From Escherichia coli (GTDB taxonomy: Bacteria; Pseudomonadota; Gammaproteobacteria; Enterobacterales; Enterobacteriaceae), in assembly GCF_036507355.1 (NCBI RefSeq), contig NZ_AP027877.1: 64,000 nt of DNA. One strand, written 5' to 3'. Positions within the stretch are counted from its first letter, which is position 1; the number at the start of each line of letters is the position of its first letter. The notes under the pieces are model-generated. The model searched no databases. It saw only the letters and a program-made list of their open reading frames with translations, and had not been told where the DNA came from. A program made the position numbers and the translations under genes. Below are positions 11,828 through 35,114 of the stretch, piece by piece.

Positions 11828-12567
11828 GTAAATTATTTTGGGCGATGCTCTCATTTATTACGCGTCTGCCTGTACCGCGTCGCTGGTCCCAGGGACTGGA
11901 TTTCGAGCATTATTCTCGCGGTATTATTACTTTTCCTTTAATTGGATTATTGCTTGGCGCGATTAGCGGGCTGGTCTTCATGGTGCTGCAGGCATGGTGT
12001 GGCGTACCACTGGCGGCACTGTTTAGCGTACTTGTGCTGGCGCTGATGACCGGGGGATTCCACCTGGACGGCCTCGCCGATACCTGTGATGGCGTATTTT
12101 CTGCACGTAGCCGCGATCGCATGTTGGAAATCATGCGTGATAGCCGTTTAGGCACCCACGGCGGTCTGGCATTGATTTTTGTTGTACTGGCAAAAATTCT
12201 GGTGTTAAGCGAGTTGGCTCTGCGTGGCGAACCGATCCTTGCATCGCTGGCGGCAGCATGTGCGGTCAGCCGCGGGACTGCCGCATTATTGATGTATCGT
12301 CATCGTTATGCCCGGGAAGAAGGGCTTGGCAATGTATTCATTGGCAAAATTGATGGGCGACAAACCTGCGTCACACTCGGCTTGGCCGCTATTTTTGCTG
12401 CCGTATTATTGCCGGGTATGCATGGTGTGGCTGCTATGGTGGTGACGATGGTGGCGATTTTCATCCTCGGTCAGCTTCTCAAACGTACGCTGGGCGGGCA
12501 AACCGGCGATACGCTGGGAGCTGCTATAGAGCTTGGTGAACTGGTCTTCCTGCTGGCACTGCTATAA
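11824..12567 (+). CDS. cobS: Cobalamin synthase
   Basis: 247-aa membrane protein; operon position. Confidence 0.95.
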
Positions 12568-12578
12568 AGAGACGTGAC

Positions 12579-13658
12579 ATGCAAACACTTGCCGATTTAC
12601 TGAATACGATCCCTGCTATCGATCCTGCCGCTATGTCGCGTGCACAACGGCATATTGACGGGTTACTCAAACCTGTTGGTAGCCTTGGAAGGCTGGAGGC
12701 GCTTGCCATACAACTGGCAGGAATGCCGGGGTTGAATGGCATACCGCATGTGGGCAAAAAAGCGGTACTGGTTATGTGTGCCGATCACGGCGTCTGGGAG
12801 GAAGGGGTCGCTATTTCCCCAAAAGAAGTGACAGCCATTCAGGCTGAAAATATGACCCGCGGAACAACCGGCGTGTGTGTGCTGGCAGCACAAGCGGGCG
12901 CTAACGTCCACGTAGTTGATGTTGGTATTGATACTGCTGAGCCTATCCCCGGGCTTATCAACATGCGTGTCGCACGAGGTAGCGGCAATATTGCTTCAGC
13001 TCCGGCAATGAGTCGCCGTCAGGCTGAAAAGTTGCTTTTGGACGTCATATGTTATACGCGGGAGCTGGCAAAAAACGGTGTCACGCTGTTTGGTGTAGGT
13101 GAACTGGGGATGGCAAACACGACACCGGCAGCAGCAATAGTCAGCACAATCACTGGCCGGGATCCTGAAGAAGTGGTTGGGATTGGCGCAAACCTGCCGA
13201 CAGATAAACTGGCTAATAAAATTGATGTTGTGCGCCGGGCGATTACGTTGAATCAACCAAATCCGCAGGATGGCGTTGATGTTCTGGCAAAAGTGGGTGG
13301 ATTTGATTTGGTCGGAATGGCTGGCGTGATGTTAGGCGCTGCTTCCTGCGGTTTACCCGTGTTGCTGGATGGATTTCTTTCTTATGCTGCTGCGCTCGCA
13401 GCCTGCCAGATGTCTCCTGCAATCAAACCGTATCTCATTCCTTCTCACCTGTCGGCAGAAAAAGGGGCGCGTATAGCGCTGTCGCATTTGGGGCTGGAGC
13501 CTTATCTCAATATGGAGATGCGTTTAGGTGAGGGGAGTGGCGCAGCTCTGGCGATGCCCATCATCGAAGCTGCCTGTGCGATATATAACAACATGGGCGA
13601 ACTTGCTGCCAGTAATATTGTTCTACCGGGGAATACGACTTCTGATTTGAACAGTTAA
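12579..13658 (+). CDS. cobT: Nicotinate-nucleotide:dimethylbenzimidazole phosphoribosyltransferase
   Basis: 359-aa ORF recognised as CobT. Confidence 0.95.
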
Positions 13659-13722
13659 AAACGAAAAGTCTGATAAAAGCTATACTTAACGGATAGCTTT
13701 CGCGACTTAGGAAAGGGACATG

Positions 13723-14655
13723 ATGCGTCGTGTAAATATTCTTTGCTCATTTGCTCTGCTTTTTGCCAGCCATACTAGCCTGGCGGTAACTTATCCATTA
13801 CCTCCAGAGGGTAGCCGTTTGGTGGGGCAGTCGCTTACTGTAACTGTTCCTGATCACAATACCCAGCCGCTGGAGACTTTTGCCGCACAATACGGGCAAG
13901 GGTTAAGTAACATGCTGGAAGCGAATCCGGGCGCTGATGTTTTCTTGCCGAAGTCTGGCTCGCAACTCACCATTCCGCAGCAACTGATTTTGCCCGCCAC
14001 TGTTCGTAAAGGGATTGTGGTTAACGTCGCTGAGATGCGTCTTTATTACTACCCGCCAGACAGTAATACTGTGGAAGTCTTTCCTATTGGTATCGGCCAG
14101 GCTGGGCGAGAAACCCCGCGTAACTGGGTGACTACCGTTGAACGTAAACAAGAAGCTCCAACCTGGACGCCAACGCCGAACACTCGGCGCGAATATGCGA
14201 AACGAGGGGAGAGTTTGCCCGCATTTGTTCCTGCGGGGCCCGATAATCCCATGGGGCTGTACGCGATTTATATTGGCAGGTTGTACGCCATCCACGGTAC
14301 CAATGCCAATTTTGGTATTGGGCTCCGGGTAAGTCAGGGCTGTATTCGTCTGCGCAACGACGATATCAAATATCTGTTTGATAATGTTCCTGTAGGTACT
14401 CGTGTACAAATTATTGATCAGCCAGTGAAATACACCACTGAACCTGATGGCTCGAACTGGCTGGAAGTTCATGAGCCGCTGTCGCGCAATCGTGCAGAAT
14501 ATGAGTCTGACCGAAAAGTGCCATTGCCGGTAACCCCATCTTTGCGGGCGTTTATCAACGGGCAAGAAGTTGATGTAAATCGCGCAAATGCTGCGTTGCA
14601 ACGTCGATCGGGAATGCCTGTGCAAATTAGTTCTGGTTCAAGACAGATGTTTTAA
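13723..14655 (+). CDS. ldtA: L,D-transpeptidase (ErfK)
   Basis: Signal peptide, YkuD-type domain with catalytic HGT...SQGCIRL motif. Confidence 0.9.
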
Positions 14656-14710: not shown

Positions 14711-14786
14711 TGGCTCCTCTGACTGGACTCGAACCAGTGACATACGGATTAACAGTCCGCCGTTCTACCGACTGAACTACAGAGGA
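14711..14786 (-). tRNA. asnV: tRNA-Asn (GUU)
   Basis: 76-nt exact tRNA-Asn sequence (reverse complement), ends in CCA. Confidence 0.97.
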
Positions 14787-17113: not shown

Positions 17114-17135
17114 AAATCTGGCTCCTCTGACTGGA
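17114..17135. repeat. attL of asnU island: 22-nt direct repeat containing the tRNA-Asn 3' end
   Basis: aaatctggctcctctgactgga identical to 25212..25233; the tRNA body does not continue here. Confidence 0.8.
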
Positions 17136-17239: not shown

Positions 17240-17500
17240 GTAAGTCACATTTTCAGGGGCTGTTACCTGGAGGTCTTAAAACCAACGAGAGGTCGTCATT
17301 CCTGGCGTATAGCGGGAATGCACCAGACATACAGAAACAGGGACTTGCACCAGCTTTAATATAGCTGGCTGCACCAGATCCTGGCGCTGCAAAAGTCCAT
17401 GATTGCGCCAGATTCTGAGGGATTACATCGATCTGAGCCAGAGTTGTCCCTTTGGGTTATAGCCTTTTCAGGTCAGGTGCTGTTACCCTTAGCTGGCCTT
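17240..17500 (+). ncRNA. Structured ORF-free leader upstream of the reverse transcriptase (candidate RT-associated ncRNA)
   Basis: Nested inverted repeats at 17341..17398, three copies of tgcaccag, direct repeat ttttcagg..gctgttacc at 17250 and 17465; no convincing ORF. Confidence 0.25.
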
Positions 17501-17793
17501 TACCCTTTTCCTTTTGACCGTCGGCTATGTGCCAAAAGCGGAATTCCAGTGGTTCTAGAAAAGCTATCATTCCATGGTCAAATTTTGTCGATCACTGCAC
17601 TTATGGAACCGCCATAACATAGGTAGATAGTTGAAGATAGCTAGAACGATGATAGATGATTTTCTTTACAGGGCTGACTTCTAGTCTATCTCATGTAATA
17701 CTCTATATTATATCTAATGTACAATATTAATAGCATTGTGATGTATCGACAACATGGATAGTCCACTGCTATTAAAACTATAATGACATTTAA

Positions 17794-18826
17794 TTGAGAA
17801 ATATAAAAATGACTCTATTAGAAAAATTGTTATCAAAAGGATACTTTCCTAAAGAAGCTCTCCCTCCTTTCTCTACGGAAAAATATGCACGCGCAATTGT
17901 GAATGGATACGATAATCTTCCCCAATTATTTAGAACCGGAAAATTCATAAGTAAGTGCGCTATTCATAATATTTCCAGAAAAGGTACATTACGGAGAAAA
18001 CTTGGAATACCTAATCCCATCAACTTCTTTAGATTAAGTGAGGCAATAACTGAAAATTGGTACGATATATATGAATGCGCAAGTGAATCAACAATATCGT
18101 TGACAACTCCAGACCCTGCCAGCAATGGCGGAAGAGCATTCAACCCAAAGCATTCATTAAATGAGCTTCCAGATATTCATGCAAAACTTAGAAGTAAACA
18201 TAAATATATACTTAAAACCGATATAAGCAGATTTTACCACTCAATATACACTCATAGTATTGCATGGACTTACCATACAAAAGATATTTCAAAAAGAAAC
18301 AGAAGCAATAGTTTATTTGGCAATGTATTAGACAAGCATTCGCAAGATTCGCAAGATGGACAAACAATAGGGCTCCCCATTGGTCCAGATACATCACTTA
18401 TCATAGCAGAGTCTCTGTTATCAAATATTGATCTTAAGCTTAGCGAAAAAGGCATTAGCAATGGCTTACGTTATATAGATGATTATTTCCTAGGGTTCAA
18501 TACAATTGGGGAAGCAGAATCTGCATTAACAATAATGCAGGAACTGTTAAACGAATATGAGTTAGCATTGAACCCCTTGAAAACAGAAATCATACAATTA
18601 CCAATTGAATTCGAGCCATTAGCAATTTCAGAACTAAGGGCATTTTCATTTAGAGATACAGCTGGCGGTCAGAAATCAGATTTAATGCATTATTTCAACA
18701 TAGCTTTCAAGGCAGCAAAAGATTTACCAACGGAACCAATATTAAAATATGCAGTATCAAGGACATTTGAAGTAAATGTTACTGCTGAAAACTATCCTGT
18801 TTTTGAAAATTTTATATTACAATGTG
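17794..18826 (+). pseudogene. Reverse transcriptase (stand-alone UG/DRT-like), 5' portion, interrupted by IS1
   Basis: RT motifs in order: RKLGIPNP (fingers), KTDISRFYHSI (motif A), GLPIGPDTSLIIAE (B'), LRYIDDYFLG (C, YxDD); TTG at 17794 or ATG at 17809; ORF runs into IS1. Confidence 0.8.
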
Positions 18827-18881
18827 GGTGATGCTGCCAACTTACTGATTTAGTGTATGATGGTGTTTTTGAGGTGCTCCA

Positions 18882-19157
18882 GTGGCTTCTGTTTCTATCA
18901 GCTGTCCCTCCTGTTCAGCTACTGACGGGGTGGTGCGTAACGGCAAAAGCACCGCCGGACATCAGCGCTATCTCTGCTCTCACTGTCGTAAAACATGGCA
19001 ACTGCAGTTCACTTACACCGCTTCTCAACCCGGTACGCACCAGAAAATCATTGATATGGCCATGAATGGCGTTGGATGCCGGGCAACAGCCCGCATTATG
19101 GGCGTTGGCCTCAACACGATTTTACGTCACTTAAAAAACTCAGGCCGCAGTCGGTAA
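18882..19157 (+). CDS. insA: IS1 protein InsA
   Basis: 91-aa ORF inside IS1. Confidence 0.95.
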
Positions 19158-19579
19158 CCTCGCGCATACAGCCGGGCAGTGACGTCATCGTCTGCGCGGA
19201 AATGGACGAACAGTGGGGCTATGTCGGGGCTAAATCGCGCCAGCGCTGGCTGTTTTACGCGTATGACAGGCTCCGGAAGACGGTTGTTGCGCACGTATTC
19301 GGTGAACGCACGATGGCGACGCTGGGGCGTCTTATGAGCCTGCTGTCACCCTTTGACGTGGTGATATGGATGACGGATGGCTGGCCGCTGTATGAATCCC
19401 GCCTGAAGGGAAAGCTGCACGTAATCAGCAAGCGATATACGCAGCGAATTGAGCGGCATAACCTGAATCTGAGGCAGCACCTGGCACGGCTGGGACGGAA
19501 GTCGCTGTCGTTCTCAAAATCGGTGGAGCTGCATGACAAAGTCATCGGGCATTATCTGAACATAAAACACTATCAATAA
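19076..19579 (+). CDS. insB: IS1 transposase InsB reading frame (made as InsAB' by frameshift)
   Basis: 167-aa ORF overlapping insA in the -1 frame. Confidence 0.9.
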
Positions 19580-19603
19580 GTTGGAGTCATTACCTACAAT
19601 GTG

Positions 19604-19881
19604 TTACAGCTGACAGTAGCACATTAAAATACACCGTCAATCAGCTTATAAAATACAAAAGAATAGGTTATGTTCAGAACGTTGAGAACATTTCGCATAT
19701 TTTGAGACAATTAGCAATAACTGAAAGCTCACTTGGCCATGGACACGAAGTTGCTTATTGCCTATGGCTTTATTTGATACTACGCATCCCCATACCAGAA
19801 GTCGTCGTTAAAAATGTGGTACCAATGAGAGATCCATTTGTTGCAATTTTGTTATGCGATTGCAGGCAAAAAACCTCATGA
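19604..19881 (+). pseudogene. Reverse transcriptase, 3' portion (C-terminal 92 codons)
   Basis: Reading frame of 17794..18826 resumes after IS1 minus one TSD copy and stays open to TGA at 19879..19881 (translated by hand). Confidence 0.7.
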
Positions 19882-20171
19882 CTTTTATACCTGATTTCTC
19901 AATTTATGAGCAAATGATGGTGATGGAAGAGCTATCGGGCGATATGTAGATTTTTGTCTATGAGATGCTTGCAAAAGGATGGTTTCAACCATTATCAAAC
20001 CAAAATCCAATTAGTCAAAATGAGTGTTATAGGTTCCTATTGAATTCAGGTGTTTTTTTCTATAATGAACATCTCTCATTAACTATTATGGCTGAAAGTC
20101 CAATTGATACAGATGGCTCGGCAGAGGGATTCAGTGGTTGAAATTAAAAATTATCTGTAAATAACTAACCC

Positions 20172-20201
20172 CCCTCCCTTTAATTTAATATTAAGGGAGG
20201 G
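20172..20201 (+). terminator. Stem-loop terminator downstream of RT region
   Basis: ccctccctt / aagggaggg inverted repeat with 12-nt loop, followed by ttgtgtttcg. Confidence 0.5.
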
Positions 20202-20449
20202 TTGTGTTTCGATATACATATATGGGCTTTGGTGAATAAATCAGATTTGGGATAAACATCCCTGGAGACAGTTGCAGCTGTCAGGTAATACGCACGCTTT
20301 TTGCTCAGAACCCCATCAATGCGCCGCCAGCACTTTTGCAGCCAGCCCAGTCGGGTTACGCCGTCTGGACTCCCAACTTTTGATGATATCGACGCTGGTT
20401 CCTTAGGGTTATTGCGTAACGATTTATTCTGCGCCAGTCATGAAAGCCG

Positions 20450-21409
20450 TTATTCCTTCTTCCATTCGTGCGCGTAAACCTGCTTCACCCAGCGACCGCG
20501 CCCGTCGCCATGCCCCAGGTCCATCGCCACCATTGCCAGCGCCTCTTTTTCGCTGAATCCCTGCGCCAGATACCGGCGAATATCGTCCTGCGCCAGATAC
20601 CGGCGAATATCGTCCTGCGCCCAGGCGTAACGCAGCGAATGTGGGGAGTATTTGCCCGTCAGCCCCATACGCAAAGTCTGGTTGCGCCAGTATTTCATTG
20701 CCTGTTTAAGGCTTGCCGCATCAATCAGCCTGCCGTTGCGCAGTCCTGCCACCACAATGGCATTATCGAGCGCCCGTTTAACTGCGCCAGCATTCTGAAT
20801 AAGGGTATCGCGGGGCCGCCCGCCTTTGGTGCCAAACACGATGGTTAGCCGGGTGGCTCCACGTTCAAGCGACTGCCGCCACGTCAGCAATGAACGTGAA
20901 CAGCGTACCGCCTCCTGTGAACGTAACCCCATCAGCCGCGCCAGCTCCAGCGCTGCCGCCAGTCCTGCGTCTTTCAGCCGGGCAGTCTCTGCCATCTGTT
21001 GATAATATTCCGGCGTGATGGCTTTCCGTGTACCATTGCGGGATACGCCAGCCAGCCCCAGCGATTTATTCGATATCCGCTCACTCTGCGCCAGTTTTTC
21101 GCGCCCGGCCTGCGTCAGTATTTTACGGATAGCCGCCGTTTCGTTATGCAGCGTCTGTTTCTGAATACCCTGCGCCAGTCGCATCTGAATATACGCCTCA
21201 ATATGCTTCGCCTTTAAATGATGGACATAGCGTATCTGAACGTTCAGTTCCGTCAGTCGTTCGCAGAACCGTTCTGCCATGGCGATACGGTCATGGACAG
21301 TCTTGTGCGCCCCGCCAGCCTGCCGCGCCAGGTTTTTCATCTCTCTTTCCAGCATACCCATTTTGCTTTTCCTCTTATCTCGCTCCTGATTTTCACAAAA
21401 CCACAACAC
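20450..21409 (-). CDS. Tyrosine recombinase-like protein (second recombinase of the island)
   Basis: 319 aa; box II-like HSLRYAWA and downstream LGHGDGRGRWVKQVYAH with candidate catalytic Tyr; contains in-frame 9-aa tandem duplication. Confidence 0.65.
   Translation of the reverse strand: MLWFCENQERDKRKSKMGMLEREMKNLARQAGGAHKTVHDRIAMAERFCERLTELNVQIRYVHHLKAKHIEAYIQMRLAQGIQKQTLHNETAAIRKILTQAGREKLAQSERISNKSLGLAGVSRNGTRKAITPEYYQQMAETARLKDAGLAAALELARLMGLRSQEAVRCSRSLLTWRQSLERGATRLTIVFGTKGGRPRDTLIQNAGAVKRALDNAIVVAGLRNGRLIDAASLKQAMKYWRNQTLRMGLTGKYSPHSLRYAWAQDDIRRYLAQDDIRRYLAQGFSEKEALAMVAMDLGHGDGRGRWVKQVYAHEWKKE
20565..20618. repeat. Perfect 27-bp tandem duplication inside the recombinase gene
   Basis: gccagataccggcgaatatcgtcctgc repeated twice, giving DDIRRYLAQ-DDIRRYLAQ. 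Confidence 0.9.
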
Positions 21410-22253
21410 ACAACGGATACAGCTTTCCCCGGCGCATAGGCCGATAGCCCCTGATTTTTGTCGGGGCTGCGAGCAGTACCTGAGCGCCGGGGCGACGGCT
21501 GTTGAGGTTTTGCGGGGTATCGGTTGTGCTCTCAGAGCAGCCGCCAGCGTGAGCTGGTCATCCCCCGGACCGTCCTGGTGGTCCCCCTCCGGTACTGGCT
21601 CATGTTCTCCTTTGGTGAATGAATGGTTGAAATAAATGCTGAAAAGCGACGTCAGAAGCTCGCCTGTGGCTGGAACAGTTGATATGACTGGTGCAGATGA
21701 AAATTTCTGCGGGCGTCAGTCTCTCACTCTGCGTGAGCGACTGACGCCCTGGTCTGGCGCAGGCGCTGAAAATTACACTCTGGTGCAGGATGGCGGCCAC
21801 GCGGCAGCAAATGCCTTCGGCAAATGCAGGCCGCAGCCCGTCATGTAAAGGGCGCTGGTAATCAGCAGGGTATAAGTGGGCCGGAGAAATTCCGGCAAAG
21901 AGAAACCGTGCAGCCGGTGAAGGCTGTTGCCGTTAAGCGATGACGATGAAGCCGTCCAGTGTATGTACTCTTAGCCTCAAACGCTTTCGCGTTCCGGTAT
22001 TGCGGAGGTCGTACCGGTAGCAGGGGGCTGGTCGTCCTGATAAATCAGGGGCTTCTTGCAGACCATGAAGCCAAAGGGGCTGTCAACCGACAGCTTATTG
22101 CAGGAGAGAGATTACACCGTAATTTCTGGCGCAGAAAGGGGAAACTCATTTTTCTGGAAATTGAGTTTCCCCCTGAATTTATGGAAAGTTTGTGAATGGA
22201 ACACTGCCGCGCTTCGCTTGTCGTCTCCCGGTGTGCGATTTGCTGTATCAGGA

Positions 22254-22502
22254 TCATCGCTTTCGCATGAACCTTTCCAGGCGATTACCTTTGCCGTCGA
22301 AGTATCTGGAAGGCCAGATGATCTCTGGAGCTATCTCCAGCGCATCTGCAATAAGTTTTTCTCCGCGCGGCCACGGGCGGGAAAGTGCATTTGCCAGTGT
22401 GGAAGAACTCAACCCTGCTTTACGCGATACCTCAGCCAGTGAGGTCCCTTTCTTTCTTAATCCGGCAATGATATCTGCCGGATGCCAGTCATCTTTATTC
22501 AT
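22254..22502 (-). CDS. Ner-like DNA-binding protein (Nlp/SfsB family)
   Basis: 82 aa; WHPADIIAGLRKKGTSLA...GLSSSTLANALSRPWP closely resembles Nlp/Ner. Confidence 0.8.
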   Translation of the reverse strand: MNKDDWHPADIIAGLRKKGTSLAEVSRKAGLSSSTLANALSRPWPRGEKLIADALEIAPEIIWPSRYFDGKGNRLERFMRKR

Positions 22503-22614
22503 TGTTTTCCCCTGTTTCCAAATCTGGTTTTTCTGACTTTAGGAACTCTAAAGGCAATGAATCTTAAGGAATGCTAAAGATGGTGTCAATGTAACTATTA
22601 ACCAAACAGGTTAT

Positions 22615-22914
22615 ATGATCCCTGAACGACTCAAGGCAGCGAGGTTGCGGGCTAATCTCACCCAGGAACAACTGGGCGTTCGTGCAGGCATCGCCGAAGA
22701 TACGGCCTGCTCCCGGCTTTCTCAGTACGAAAGTGGAACACACAAGCCCACATTCAAAATGGTTTGTGCCTTTGCTCGTGTTTTGCATGTTCCTGAATGT
22801 TACTTCTATGCACAGGAAGACACTTTCGCCGAAGCGATTTTAAGGCTGTATGACGGTGAAACTGTGCAGTGGAATATAAAAACAGAGATCGTTCATCATA
22901 CTGAACGGGTATAA
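22615..22914 (+). CDS. XRE-family HTH regulator (copy 1)
   Basis: 99 aa; HTH LTQEQLGVRAGI; paralogue of 23014..23283. Confidence 0.7.
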   Translation: MIPERLKAARLRANLTQEQLGVRAGIAEDTACSRLSQYESGTHKPTFKMVCAFARVLHVPECYFYAQEDTFAEAILRLYDGETVQWNIKTEIVHHTERV

Positions 22915-23013
22915 ACCTCTTGCCTCATCCATCCTCTTTATGAACTCTAAAGAAAAATGCTCTTGAGGAATGCTAAAGATTACCGTCATAAATTCAAACT
23001 GATGGTAATTTCA

Positions 23014-23283
23014 ATGATCCCCAAACGCTTAAAAGAAGCCAGATTGCGGGCTAAACTCACTCAGGAAAAATTGGGGGTACTGGCGGGTATTGAAGAAGCC
23101 ACGGCTTATTCGCGTCTGTCACATTACGAGAGTGGTACGCATAAACCAACTTTTGATCTCGTTTGTGAGTTTGCCCGAGTACTCAATGTACCAGAATGCT
23201 ATTTCTATACGGTGGATGATGATTTCGCGCAGGCGGTGTTGGATCTTCATGCCAGGTGGACAAAGAGAACTACGGAAAGATAG
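23014..23283 (+). CDS. XRE-family HTH regulator (copy 2)
   Basis: 89 aa from MIPKRLKEARL; about 70 percent identical to copy 1; similar upstream sequence. Confidence 0.7.
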   Translation: MIPKRLKEARLRAKLTQEKLGVLAGIEEATAYSRLSHYESGTHKPTFDLVCEFARVLNVPECYFYTVDDDFAQAVLDLHARWTKRTTER

Positions 23284-23299
23284 ATCGCAGAAAATAAAA

Positions 23300-23400
23300 A
23301 ACCCCGCTGGTGAGGCAGGGTTCTTTATTTTTCGTTCTCAGACTGCTTATAGCGACCTGAGCAACGTTGCGCGACAATACAATCCTAGCAGAATAAGTTT
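23300..23400 (-). ncRNA. Candidate antisense sRNA antitoxin (Orz-like) with 20-nt match to toxin 5' UTR
   Basis: gacaatacaatcctagcaga (23373..23392) repeats 19/20 at 23545..23564 in the toxin leader; stem-loop with flanking T-run near 23290..23330 could terminate a minus-strand transcript. Confidence 0.3.
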
Positions 23401-23634
23401 AACCCGCTTTGTTTCCCGTTGCAAACAAACGCTCCCGGTCTTTATAATGCCAGACGCTGGGTTTATCACGTTTCAGGCCAGACCGATTTCAAGCCCTGAC
23501 TGCCGGACGGGTGGTGCCGCAGGCAGTGCCCCGGTCTGGAGCGTGATAATACAATCCTAGCAGATGTGATCCTGCGCCGACAGGCAATGTAAGGGTAAGG
23601 TGCAGGCGTTGCGCTCCTTTCATAAGGAGAGCGG

Positions 23635-23724
23635 ATGGACATGTTGACGCGAAAGCTGATCGTGCTCATCGCCGTACTGGAGCTTTTGCTGGCTCTGCTG
23701 CGGTTGATTGATCTGTTGAAATAA
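23635..23724 (+). CDS. ShoB/ZorO-like type I toxin, 29-aa hydrophobic peptide
   Basis: MDMLTRKLIVLIAVLELLLALLRLIDLLK; SD aaggag 7 nt upstream; single TM helix; followed by terminator. Confidence 0.6.
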   Translation: MDMLTRKLIVLIAVLELLLALLRLIDLLK

Positions 23725-23744
23725 TTCTCAGATTGAAACGCACC

Positions 23745-23770
23745 AAAGGGGAAACACCCGTTTCCCCTTT
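23745..23770 (+). terminator. Rho-independent terminator after toxin ORF
   Basis: ggggaaac-accc-gtttcccc stem-loop followed by ttt. Confidence 0.6.
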
Positions 23771-23788
23771 AATAAATACGCTGCTTTG

Positions 23789-25066
23789 TTACGACGCCTG
23801 TTTCAGGCGGCGGGCATACTGGTAAGCTGAAACATACCCGTCACTGTTTGCATCAAGATAATCTGACCACCATTGCATCATCTCGATCCGCTCTTCCAGA
23901 TATTCAGCCTTGTGAATATACGCAGCGCGGACGCTGTTTCTTTCCTGGTGACTCATTTGTTTTTCAATCGCTTCTTTGCTCCACAGCCCCGATTCACTCA
24001 ACGCACTACATGCCATCGCCCGGAAGCCATGCCCGCAGACGTCTTTTTTGGTGTCATAGCCCATCACCCGCAGCGCTTTATTCACGGTGTTGTCGCTCAT
24101 GCACTTATCCTGGTCGTACTCGCCGGGAAAGATAAAGGCCAGATGACCGGAGAGGGCTTCGATCTGTTTCAGGATCGCAATTGCCTGATCCGACAGCGGC
24201 ACGATATGTTGAATTTTCATTTTCGACCCCCGGTAAGAGAAGCGCACATTTTCGATCTGCTCGCGTTCTTCCGCGATCACCCACAGCTTTTGCTGCCAGT
24301 CGATTTCACTCCAGCGAGCAAAGCGTAGCTCGCTGGAGCGCACAAAAAATATCAGTGACAACTTAAGGGCGTATTTCGTCAGCAGCCTGCCGCAGTAGTT
24401 ATCCGTACGGGTTAAAAGCTCTGGCAGCCTGTCCAGCGACAGGGCCGGGTAATGATTAGTCTCTGGCGCAGCAAATTCACCATCCAGATACAGCGCGGGG
24501 TTCGCTTTGAGCAACTGCTTTTTCATCGCGTAGTGCATGATGTCGGTGACATAGTTTTTCAGCCGGGCGGTGATCTCCAGAAAGCCTTTGCTCTCCACCT
24601 TACGCAGCGTGACCAGCAAATCCTCTGTTTCGATCTCCCCGATAAGGCGATCCCCGATATCCGGGAAAACATACATTTCCAGTCTGCGCATAACCGTTTT
24701 CGCGTAATGTTCAGACCAGCGTTTATGCTCGCCATGCCAGTTAGTGGCGACCTGGCTGAACGTCTGTCCGTTTTTCTTCTTCTGTTTCTCCGTCTGCTTC
24801 ACCGCAGCAGGATCGACGCCTGCATGAATGTTATTGCGTGCCGCTTCCCGTAAACGGCGAGCCTGCAACAGCGAGATCCCCGGGTAGGGGCCAAAGGCCA
24901 GCTTTTTCTCTTTCCCGTCGATACGGTACTTCATGTACCAGAGTTTTGAGCCATTAGGTTTGATCAACAGGTACAGTCCGGAACTGTCTGTCATTTTGAA
25001 AGGTTTGTCGGAGGGTTTGATCTTGCGAATCGTGGTATCTGTTAATGCCATAGCGGGGGGCTCCAT
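23789..25066 (-). CDS. P4-type tyrosine integrase
   Basis: 425 aa (or start at MALTDTTIRK, 25051); arm-binding N-terminus and C-terminal catalytic domain (HGFRAMA); adjacent to tRNA-Asn. Confidence 0.9.
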   Translation of the reverse strand: MEPPAMALTDTTIRKIKPSDKPFKMTDSSGLYLLIKPNGSKLWYMKYRIDGKEKKLAFGPYPGISLLQARRLREAARNNIHAGVDPAAVKQTEKQKKKNGQTFSQVATNWHGEHKRWSEHYAKTVMRRLEMYVFPDIGDRLIGEIETEDLLVTLRKVESKGFLEITARLKNYVTDIMHYAMKKQLLKANPALYLDGEFAAPETNHYPALSLDRLPELLTRTDNYCGRLLTKYALKLSLIFFVRSSELRFARWSEIDWQQKLWVIAEEREQIENVRFSYRGSKMKIQHIVPLSDQAIAILKQIEALSGHLAFIFPGEYDQDKCMSDNTVNKALRVMGYDTKKDVCGHGFRAMACSALSESGLWSKEAIEKQMSHQERNSVRAAYIHKAEYLEERIEMMQWWSDYLDANSDGYVSAYQYARRLKQAS

Positions 25067-25211
25067 TTGCTCACCGAACCGTGAGGCCCCCGATTAAGCC
25101 CACAAAAACTATGGATGTCAAGAAACCCGGTAGCCTCTTGTGAGACAACCGGGTAAAGATAAGTTCTTGTTTTTTAACTATCTCGAGACTCATAGAGATG
25201 TCTCAAAACTA

Positions 25212-25233
25212 AAATCTGGCTCCTCTGACTGGA
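25212..25233. repeat. attR of asnU island (overlaps 3' end of intact tRNA-Asn)
   Basis: 22-nt perfect match to 17114..17135. Confidence 0.8.
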
Positions 25234-25292
25234 CTCGAACCAGTGACATACGGATTAACAGTCCGCCGTTCTACCGACTGAACTACAGAGGA
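25217..25292 (-). tRNA. asnU: tRNA-Asn (GUU)
   Basis: 76-nt exact tRNA-Asn sequence; position between cbl and yeeO. Confidence 0.97.
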
Positions 25293-25452
25293 ATCGCTGT
25301 TGAGGCACATCTTAACGGCGAAAAATCTTTTGTCAAACCCGATTTTTAAATTCCCCAACTGTTTGCCGTTTCTATCAACAGTTTGTTGCATTTGCAGACA
25401 ATTTGTTGGCGAAAATCTTTGCAGCTTTGCTGATTCTCCCTCATTATTTGAA

Positions 25453-31496: not shown

Positions 31497-31587
31497 AATG
31501 ATCCTGTTTGTACTGTCTTTTTATAATTAGTATGGAAAAGGTAACTCACATTGCCGTCGATCTATAAACTGAATCGCCACGGATAAT

Positions 31588-32400
31588 CTAGACACTTCCG
31601 AGCCGTTGATAATACTGGTTTTCATATTCTGTCGGTGACATCTGATCGCTGGAACCATGCCGACGCTTACTGTTATAAAACATTTCGATGTAATCAAAAA
31701 TATCGCTGCGGGCTTCTTCCCGCGTTCCGTAGATCTTTTTCTTTATCCGTTCGCGTTTCAACAACTGGAAAAAGCTTTCTGCAACCGCATTATCATGGCA
31801 GTTACCGCGACGGCTCATGCTGCCCTCCAGGCCGTGTGATTTCAGGAACGACTGCCACTCATGGCTTGTGTACTGACTGCCCTGATCCGAATGAACCAGC
31901 ACCTGTTTTTGGGGATTACGGCGCCATACAGCCATCAGCAGTGCGTTCAGGACAATGTCCTTTGTCATCCGGGATTGCATGGACCAGCCGATAATTTTGC
32001 GTGAGAACAGATCAACAACCACGGCAAGATACAGCCAGCCTTCGTGGGTCCTGATGTAGGTTATGTCCGTTACCCAACGCTTATCCGGAGCATCCGGATT
32101 GAACTGTCGCTGGAGCCTGTTGGGCGACACGATACTGGCCTCGCCTTTACGTGCCCGCGGGCTCCGGTATCCGACCTGAGCCTTTATCCCGACACGTTTC
32201 ATCAGTCGCCAGACTCTGTTCACTCCGCACTGTTGCCCGCTGTCCCGCAGATCCAGATGGATTTTGCGATAACCATAGACGCATCCCGATTCCAGCCAGA
32301 ACTGTTTAATCTGCCCTGTCAGCCTCAGGTCTGCCTGATGGCGTTGTGAATGCGGCTGCTGAAGCCAGGCGTAAAAACCACTGGGATGAACATCCAGCAC
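31588..32400 (-). CDS. IS3-family transposase OrfB (DDE domain)
   Basis: 270-aa ORF with DITY...D...E integrase-core-like sequence. Confidence 0.85.
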   Translation of the reverse strand: MLDVHPSGFYAWLQQPHSQRHQADLRLTGQIKQFWLESGCVYGYRKIHLDLRDSGQQCGVNRVWRLMKRVGIKAQVGYRSPRARKGEASIVSPNRLQRQFNPDAPDKRWVTDITYIRTHEGWLYLAVVVDLFSRKIIGWSMQSRMTKDIVLNALLMAVWRRNPQKQVLVHSDQGSQYTSHEWQSFLKSHGLEGSMSRRGNCHDNAVAESFFQLLKRERIKKKIYGTREEARSDIFDYIEMFYNSKRRHGSSDQMSPTEYENQYYQRLGSV

Positions 32401-32456
32401 CCGACAGAGCAGGCGAACAGGCCAGCAACAGGTGTTGTCACGGATAAAGGCGTACC

Positions 32457-32741
32457 TCAGTCGGACAGCTTTGCGAAGTACGCCGCGGCTTTTTTTAATA
32501 TGTCCCGTTCGTCGGTAACCCGCTTCAGCTCTTTCTGGAGACGGCGGATCTCGGCCTGAGCATCTGACTGTTCTTTATTAGCGGAAGAATCCGGACCGTA
32601 CTTCTTTATCCAGGCGTAAAGGCTGTGGGTGGTGATATCGAGACGTGTTGCAACGCTGGCAACAGAATAACCGCGATCAACAACCTGTTTGACTGCTTCA
32701 ATTTTAAACTCTTCGGGATAACGCTTACCGCTCATGGGCAC
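32457..32741 (-). CDS. IS3-family transposase OrfA (HTH)
   Basis: 94-aa ORF with HTH and leucine-zipper-like C-terminus typical of IS3 OrfA. Confidence 0.85.
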   Translation of the reverse strand: MPMSGKRYPEEFKIEAVKQVVDRGYSVASVATRLDITTHSLYAWIKKYGPDSSANKEQSDAQAEIRRLQKELKRVTDERDILKKAAAYFAKLSD

Positions 32742-32798
32742 CTCTCTTTAAGCCATCTTAAATGACTCTGAGGTGTCTGTTAAACCCGTGGCGATTCA

Positions 32799-35114
<2,316 letters not shown>

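Follow-up and report, generated by a model that had tools for sequence, protein, structure and literature searches.

IS1 as the last of three lesions in a DRT6/UG12-type reverse transcriptase gene of Escherichia coli

The window, a stretch of 64,000 nucleotides of an Escherichia coli genome (contig NZ_AP027877.1), contains a reverse transcriptase (RT) gene that carries three lesions, the youngest of which is an inserted IS1. By an ordinary simple transposition, this IS1 entered codon 340 of a DRT6/UG12-type RT gene; in all likelihood the gene had already been disabled, and the insertion is a late hit of neutral decay. One A was first lost from an A7 run, and with it the last 89 residues of the alphaRep region; a stop was then acquired at Trp455; and an active IS1 copy finally transposed into codon 340. 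The RT gene is the sole cargo of an 8.1-kb island, which is integrated at a tRNA-Asn gene. Landing of the IS1 would have been favoured by the AT-rich target rather than by selection for loss of the RT. The IS1 came third, after two other lesions, and its presence can be explained without invoking selection for inactivation.

The IS1 element and its target site

The insertion comprises the following features.
18827 to 19594, plus strand: IS1, IS1A-like, complete (99.9% IS1A identity; NF033558)
18818 to 18826, no strand: target-site duplication TACAATGTG, left copy (13 other loci have the empty site with one copy)
19595 to 19603, no strand: target-site duplication TACAATGTG, right copy (sequence check)
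18882 to 19157, plus strand: IS1 insA, 91 aa (ORF and NF033558 model)
19076 to 19579, plus strand: IS1 insB' reading frame (ORF and NF033558, E=1.8e-42)

A script check on the window sequence showed one complete IS1 of 768 bp in the same orientation as the RT gene, and it was the only IS1 copy in the window. Over the full IS1 length it was 99.9% identical to annotated IS1A copies, which were found in 4,950 of 5,426 complete E. coli genomes. The ends of the element read GGTGATGCTGCC... and ...GGAGTCATTACC, and its termini are imperfect inverted repeats (GGTGATGCTGCCAACTTACTGAT / GGTAATGACTCCAACTTATTGAT) that agree in 18 of their first 23 positions. Both insA and insB' matched the NCBIfam IS1 transposase model NF033558, and the A6C frameshift motif AAAAAAC was located at 19133, inside the insA/insB' overlap. 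All features by which the IS1 family is recognised were present, i.e. the length and the inverted repeats, insA/insB' with the A6C motif, and a duplication of 8-9 bp. The 9-mer TACAATGTG flanks the element on both sides, and scanning of both strands of the window yielded no other copy; the probability of a 9/9 match by chance is ~4e-6. The sequence-only reading had described a complete 768-bp IS1 with canonical ends and this 9-bp duplication, and its description was exact.

Subtraction of the IS1 and one 9-mer left a sequence that agreed with E. coli G4/9 (NZ_CP060073.1) from end to end at 99.9%. An empty site with a single TACAATGTG was found in G4/9 and in 12 further loci in other assemblies, which proves a simple insertion with no adjacent deletion. 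The survey of related genomes for an uninterrupted allele, which had been suggested together with the claim of a simple transposition, therefore bore this claim out. The interrupted allele itself is known from one assembly only. The GC content was 35% in the RT gene and 27% in the 60 bp around the target, vs 48% in the window. AT-rich targets of 8-9 bp are favoured by IS1, and 9-bp duplications dominate (PMC10359306); the AT-rich cargo target fits this documented preference.

True length of the interrupted gene and order of its lesions

Parts of the RT gene could be assigned on both sides of the IS1.
17716 to 17808, plus strand: RT cassette ahead of the ATG, with homology in distant relatives (L002, beginning at 17716)
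17809 to 18831, plus strand: RT 5' fragment, codons 1-339 followed by Gly and TGA from IS1; fingers/palm and first 3.5 alphaRep helices (ORF, alignment, AF2 model)
18472 to 18483, plus strand: YIDD catalytic motif, residues 222-225 (alignment)
19604 to 19881, plus strand: RT fragment past IS1, codons 340-429, then Thr-Ser-stop made by the frameshift (sequence comparison)
19868 to 19873, plus strand: A6 run, 1 nt lost from ancestral A7, oldest lesion (common to G4/9, L011-L014, L016 and L017; intact alleles have A7)
19875 to 20141, plus strand: 3' end of the RT gene, read in the shifted frame, with codons 431-518 and original stop (collinear with intact 518-aa homologues)
19947 to 19949, plus strand: TAG in place of invariant Trp455, G->A at 19948, second lesion (without IS1 in L016 and L017)

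The RT gene starts with an ATG at 17809, and the interrupted ORF encodes 339 native residues and a Gly before it ends at a TGA contributed by the IS1 end. This 340-aa product of the window is identical to WP_338388290.1. A promoter-like sequence upstream of the gene (17755-17784) is a consensus match only, not above chance. D224 and D225 of the catalytic YIDD motif are invariant. The IS1 falls in codon 340, so that the earlier placement within the RT coding sequence was right; it lies 114 residues past YIDD, and not about 50 residues after the YxDD motif as had been stated.

When the IS1 was removed in silico, the frame ran to the TGA at 19879-19881 and encoded 431 aa, and another frame carried protein-like sequence on to 20141, broken by one TAG. 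The joined frames yielded a protein of 518 aa, for which the match to the Drt4/Drt6 profiles of PADLOC covered the full length. The closest database relatives (87-92% identity) were every one exactly 518 aa long, and alignment to these intact homologues was collinear across the frame break, with Ile67, D425, L431, Trp455, Glu460, Trp466 and Phe492 invariant. The repaired 518-aa sequence was also present verbatim in public data (P0122, 14 contigs), and there the island and its chromosomal position, flanked by cbl and a tRNA-Asn, were those of the window. The intact RT product is thus 518 aa long and 179 native residues lie past the IS1. The loss of the C-terminal 92 residues proposed by the sequence-only reading holds against the 431-aa ORF (431-339), but not against the intact protein, from which 179 residues are lost. 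Both this number and the distance of 50 residues went wrong because the older frameshift had not been recognised: the most conspicuous lesion is not the one that inactivated the gene, and one missing A in a homopolymer had shortened the ORF and skewed the residue counts.

The window allele without the IS1 differs from the intact allele L006 by two nucleotides only, i.e. A7->A6 (19868-19873) and G->A at 19948. The former truncates the RT at 429 native residues and removes the last 89; the latter turns the invariant Trp455 into TAG. Variants of the allele were surveyed through protein clusters, in which synonymous changes are invisible. The exact 431-aa frameshift product (P0121) was encoded by 151 contigs without IS1, the 87-aa ORF downstream of the frameshift by 172 contigs and the IS1-truncated 340-aa product by 1 contig, this genome alone; these counts follow clonal sampling and not independent events. 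Among the 5,426 complete E. coli genomes, only G4/9 carries this RT.

All A6 loci examined (8/8) shared the flanking markers 16352G, 17446G and AACCCC at 20167-71, whereas all A7 loci at the same site (5/5) shared the alternative markers. This perfect linkage of the run length to the flanking haplotype shows that the A deletion arose once and was inherited. In two loci, L016 (Logan SRR21291491) and L017 (ENA ERZ27235528), the A6 run and W455* occur together with the SNP 17201T, which is otherwise specific for the window, yet the IS1 target is empty. The IS1 is therefore the last of the three lesions, and the order is intact, A7 to A6, W455* (with 17201T) and IS1. The same two loci speak against the earlier suggestion of inactivation by the IS1 as a plausible selective outcome, as both carry the frameshift and W455* without it.

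Private changes were also observed on the A6 background. These were I67M in G4/9, at an invariant residue, T99I in P0127 and Q338* in L013 and L014. On the A7 background, L015, a separate lineage in which the island occupies another asn tRNA, showed a 339-nt in-frame deletion by which codons 146-258 including YIDD are gone. The number of independent primary RT knockouts is at least two. The secondary changes found (I67M, T99I, Q338*, W455* and IS1) all alter the protein, a pattern that would also fit selection for further inactivation.

Protein family, predicted function and island context

Pfam analysis of the RT yielded RVT_1 only (E=2e-14). The AF2 model of the repaired RT (61-sequence alignment) reached a pLDDT of 91 and a pTM of 0.90, and it shows fingers/palm to about residue 265, followed by a stretch of ~14 helices (residues 271-487) with pLDDT values above 90. 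In a Foldseek search against the PDB, the first rank was taken by 9wy8, 'Cryo-EM structure of the hexameric DRT6' (TM 0.89/0.93, rmsd 2.2 A, 31% identity), followed by UG15/DRT4 (TM 0.81, rmsd 3.7 A, 22% identity) and then by AbiK and Abi-P2. A literature search on the PDB code 9WY8 yielded no relevant paper. With phmmer, 9wy8 (DRT6) was matched over its full length at 1e-68 and UG15 at 8e-20 over residues 5-361 only. Within one PADLOC accession series, Drt6 PDLC03748 scored 553 bits vs 242 bits for Drt4 PDLC03752. The top PADLOC profile was PADLOC's own Drt4 PDLC02177 with 573 bits, slightly above Drt6 PDLC03748. DRT4 identity, as suggested by the name of this top profile, was rejected, because the NCBIfam Drt4 equivalog reached 223.4 bits vs a cut-off of 450 bits, and both sequence and fold are nearer to DRT6. 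On sequence comparison and modelled fold, the RT is a DRT6/UG12-type class 1 UG/Abi RT of an enterobacterial/Vibrio subgroup, in line with the earlier reference to defence RT systems. YxDD fingers/palm, closer relation to UG12 than to other UG/Abi groups and a stand-alone gene were all found; an alphaRep in place of the thumb was found for the reconstructed ancestral protein only, as the window gene encodes it up to residue 339. The stand-alone state is apparent from the cassette homology to distant relatives, which spans 17716-20300 only, and from the neighbouring genes, which vary among relatives.

Two further candidates were tried and rejected. A retron or group II intron RT was ruled out, as no Rfam retron or intron family was found in the window, NCBIfam models were far below their cut-offs, and fold matches to such RTs spanned the RT core alone (TM 0.3-0.4). 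The Rfam search of the window yielded no family near the RT gene. For the GC-rich region 17400-17620 upstream, an ncRNA of the DRT2/DRT9 or retron kind was rejected because this region had no Rfam match, because cassette homology begins 93 nt before the ATG, and also because class 1 RTs need no ncRNA.

UG12, i.e. DRT6, protects against T5 and ZL-19 in an RT-dependent manner (PMC9226505). DRT4 and DRT6 synthesise protein-primed, template-independent ssDNA constitutively, which for DRT6 is known from the Sphingopyxis enzyme (PMC12783706). [quoted passage not shown] By homology to DRT6/DRT4, the intact 518-aa RT should form hexamers, make protein-primed untemplated ssDNA and kill infected cells once a phage protein shields this ssDNA from exonuclease I.

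On the AF2 model, residues 430-518 are lost through the A-run deletion; they contain five short helices, whose pLDDT exceeds 94 throughout as far as residue 500. W455* lies at the start of helix 455-464, and the IS1 cut is located inside helix 329-342, so that the thumb-mimicking start of the alphaRep alone remains. Polymerase activity and defence of DRT4 require oligomerisation via the alphaRep helices (PMC12783706), and removal of 38 C-terminal residues from UG15 abolished immunity (PMC9226505). By analogy with these proteins, the 431-aa frameshift product was very probably non-functional before the IS1 arrived; for the UG15 truncation, the analogy is with a protein only ~22% identical to the window RT. 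The 431-aa product still has its catalytic domain, along with roughly two thirds of the alphaRep, so that residual polymerase activity or toxicity is possible.

The RT gene lies in an island that is delimited by the following features.
17114 to 17135, no strand: distal att repeat AAATCTGGCTCCTCTGACTGGA (perfect 22-nt repeat of 25212-25233)
20450 to 21409, minus strand: Integrase_1-domain gene of the island backbone (domain search)
23789 to 25066, minus strand: P4-type tyrosine integrase of the island (domain search)
25212 to 25233, no strand: proximal att repeat, overlapping the tRNA-Asn 3' end (repeat search)
25217 to 25292, minus strand: tRNA-Asn (GTT), integration site of the island (RNA annotation)

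The perfect 22-nt direct repeat AAATCTGGCTCCTCTGACTGGA brackets 8.1 kb. The backbone consists of the P4-type integrase, three HTH genes, the EFASI RNA and the Integrase_1-domain gene, and the cargo is the RT alone. This backbone was found in many E. coli genomes with ~92.7% identity, at varied asn tRNA copies and with varied single-gene cargo, e.g. genes for hypothetical proteins of 438 aa or 1,210 aa. The RT cassette (17716-20300) has counterparts with ~90% identity in elements of the Enterobacter type, in which its neighbour is a GmrSD restriction gene.

The window also contains sbcB. Its ORF is intact and 99% identical, and its first 8 codons and the promoter/upstream DNA are replaced by a gtrABC prophage remnant. 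The extra DNA at sbcB amounts to 4.7 kb and is not present in G4/9. As G4/9 carries the frameshift without this insert, the frameshift predates the insert. The possibility that the 4.7 kb had disabled exonuclease I and made the RT toxic was ruled out by the intact sbcB ORF and by the frameshift of G4/9 in the absence of the insert. The replacement of the sbcB promoter is noteworthy given the SbcB dependence of DRT4/DRT6 toxicity.

Alternative readings and comparison with known systems

If the IS1 itself had disabled a functional, costly or toxic RT, it might have been kept because inactivation was advantageous. This reading is distinctly improbable, as the IS1 entered after the frameshift and W455* and was not the primary inactivation. 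It draws on the constitutive ssDNA synthesis of DRT4/DRT6, which is toxic without exonuclease I (sbcB) (PMC12783706), and on CRISPR-Cas genes, which are hit by IS elements under self-toxicity, with IS1 dominant in E. coli (PMC10359306); the sbcB ORF in the window is, however, intact. Repeated damage to the RT in E. coli (the A-run deletion, the 339-nt palm deletion of L015, Q338*, W455* and IS1) also speaks for it, but neutral decay predicts a single clonal frameshift followed by private secondary lesions. By contig count, the ratio of disrupted to intact alleles is ~4:1, which reflects clone sampling. In a broader form, all RT lesions might result from recurrent selection in E. coli against costly constitutive DRT6-type ssDNA synthesis, aggravated here by replacement of the sbcB promoter and first 8 codons. 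This was considered unlikely; it draws on the majority frameshift allele, the independent palm deletion, Q338*, W455*, the IS1 and two missense changes at invariant residues.

Alternatively, the A run could be a phase-variable on/off switch operated by slipped-strand mispairing or transcriptional slippage, with the IS1 as the first irreversible knockout. The lesion does lie in a homopolymer (A7/A6), a classic substrate of slippage, and A6 and A7 both circulate in E. coli at the same locus. Among the 13 loci (8 A6, 5 A7), however, run length was perfectly linked to the flanking markers, with no recombinant or revertant, and on this linkage phase variation at the A run was rejected as a candidate. 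Moreover, distant intact relatives carry AAAAAGGG at this position and not a long A run, so that the run is not conserved, and W455* preceded the IS1, so that a restored frame would still end at residue 454. A switch of this kind is therefore very unlikely. It is barely credible that the IS1 copy is an assembly artefact, such as a collapsed repeat or one wrongly placed in the RT gene. The interrupted allele was confined to one assembly, gene-level look-up gave no second record, and a median of 11 IS1-matching places per E. coli genome complicates assembly; but a misassembly would not produce a perfect 9-bp duplication of a sequence that is single at the empty site, and the flanks are otherwise collinear with related contigs and 100% identical to them (L018). 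A late insertion by neutral decay into an already disabled gene remains the preferred reading.

Taken alone, the insertion matters little, as IS1 insertions and decaying defence genes are routine in E. coli. The locus is, at one chromosomal site, a natural series from intact to frameshift, nonsense and IS alleles. The series could be used to probe to what extent polymerase activity, toxicity and defence of a DRT6-type enzyme depend on the length of its alphaRep, and the locus could serve to test neutral vs selected loss of single-gene defence cargo.

The element in the window shares with IS1A of E. coli the length of 768 bp, insA/insB' with the A6C site, the imperfect inverted repeats and a 9-bp duplication in AT-rich DNA; it differs by one base from the listed IS1A copies and in nothing else of note. 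With the IS1/IS10 insertions into cas genes (PMC10359306) it has in common an IS1 with a 9-bp duplication inside an E. coli defence gene. In those cases, however, the IS was the selected inactivating event under self-targeting, whereas the IS1 of the window entered a gene in which a frameshift and a nonsense mutation were already present.

Like DRT6 (UG12, 9wy8), the RT is encoded by a single gene and, in the repaired protein, has YIDD fingers/palm followed by a helical alphaRep that replaces the thumb. Characterised DRT6 is only ~31% identical, and the window copy is a pseudogene with three lesions; its subgroup is annotated only as 'RNA-directed DNA polymerase', unlike characterised DRT6. 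The domain plan is also shared with DRT4 (UG15), from which the window RT differs by a score below the Drt4 cut-off, a weaker sequence match and a weaker fold match. Its chemistry was probably the same as that of DRT4, i.e. protein-primed untemplated ssDNA synthesis by a hexamer with activation by phage T5 ORF55, as far as can be judged by analogy. The window RT is thus a new, unremarkable member of DRT6/UG12, the IS1 is a known element, and disruption of defence genes by IS elements has already been described.

The island backbone and its variable cargo

The backbone of the island, which lies at 20466-25300 and comprises two integrase-type genes and three HTH genes, was found again in many E. 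coli genomes (including loci L004, L005 and L015), where it was ~92.7% identical and inserted at differing tRNA-Asn copies. The content of the cargo slot varied between versions of the island: the window carries the reverse transcriptase (RT) gene, the CREC-2 version carries a gene for a 438-aa hypothetical protein, and the A30 version carries a gene for a 1,210-aa hypothetical protein together with a RelE/ParE pair. The backbone and its variable slot look like a family of small islands with exchangeable single-gene cargo, and this cargo is probably defensive.

The RT cassette was also detected outside this backbone. In the contigs L002 (821-2710) and L003 (446-2335), a restriction gene of the GmrSD type (DUF262/DUF1524) was followed directly downstream by an RT cassette with ~90% DNA identity to that of the window, and integrases adjoined it. 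The cassette there belongs to another mobile element, whose defence cargo comprises two genes.

At 17399-17617, a GC-rich tract separates the RT cassette from the att repeat. The 72-aa ORF inside it gave no Pfam match. The initial 135 nt of the tract were 82% identical to unannotated regions of 10 other E. coli genomes, and the tract may therefore represent a conserved end of the island.

Variation within the backbone

An Rfam match was located in the backbone, directly upstream of the Integrase_1-domain gene:

21470-21603, (-) strand, EFASI RNA (Rfam RF02957), full-length match, 112 bits

The Integrase_1-domain gene itself contains a perfect 27-bp tandem duplication (20560-20613), giving an in-frame 9-aa repeat (AQDDIRRYL), and the number of repeat copies differed from strain to strain. 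An 11-bp indel after position 21188 separated the two haplotypes and altered the length of the called ORF (235 vs 303 aa). In L007, from a strain with the intact RT allele, an IS21-type element encoding IstA/IstB (11917-14219) had inserted into the backbone, separating the Integrase_1 gene from the HTH genes, a further IS hit on the same small island.

tRNA-Asn sites and the surrounding chromosome

Four tRNA-Asn (GTT) genes are present within a 21-kb stretch of the window (at 14711, 25217, 27041 and 35428); only that at 25217 bears the RT island, and the other copies are occupied by related islands in other strains. Collinearity with the E. coli genome G4/9 stopped at 31582. Beyond this breakpoint, an IS3-family transposase segment (32104-32799) was 100% identical to G4/9 in reversed orientation, which suggests an IS-associated rearrangement in this region (31582-32799).

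A 4.7-kb prophage remnant that G4/9 lacks was observed at 2360-7050, flanked by att-like repeats:

2330-2359, att-like repeat
7051-7080, att-like repeat

In addition to a truncated integrase gene and a tail-fibre-like ORF, the remnant contains gtrA/gtrB/gtrC-like genes for O-antigen modification. The 5′ end of sbcB (exonuclease I) is its insertion site, and codons 1-8 of that gene have been replaced along with the upstream region; the remaining ORF is 99% identical. This insertion may be relevant, since DRT4/DRT6 have been reported to be toxic in the absence of SbcB (PMC12783706).
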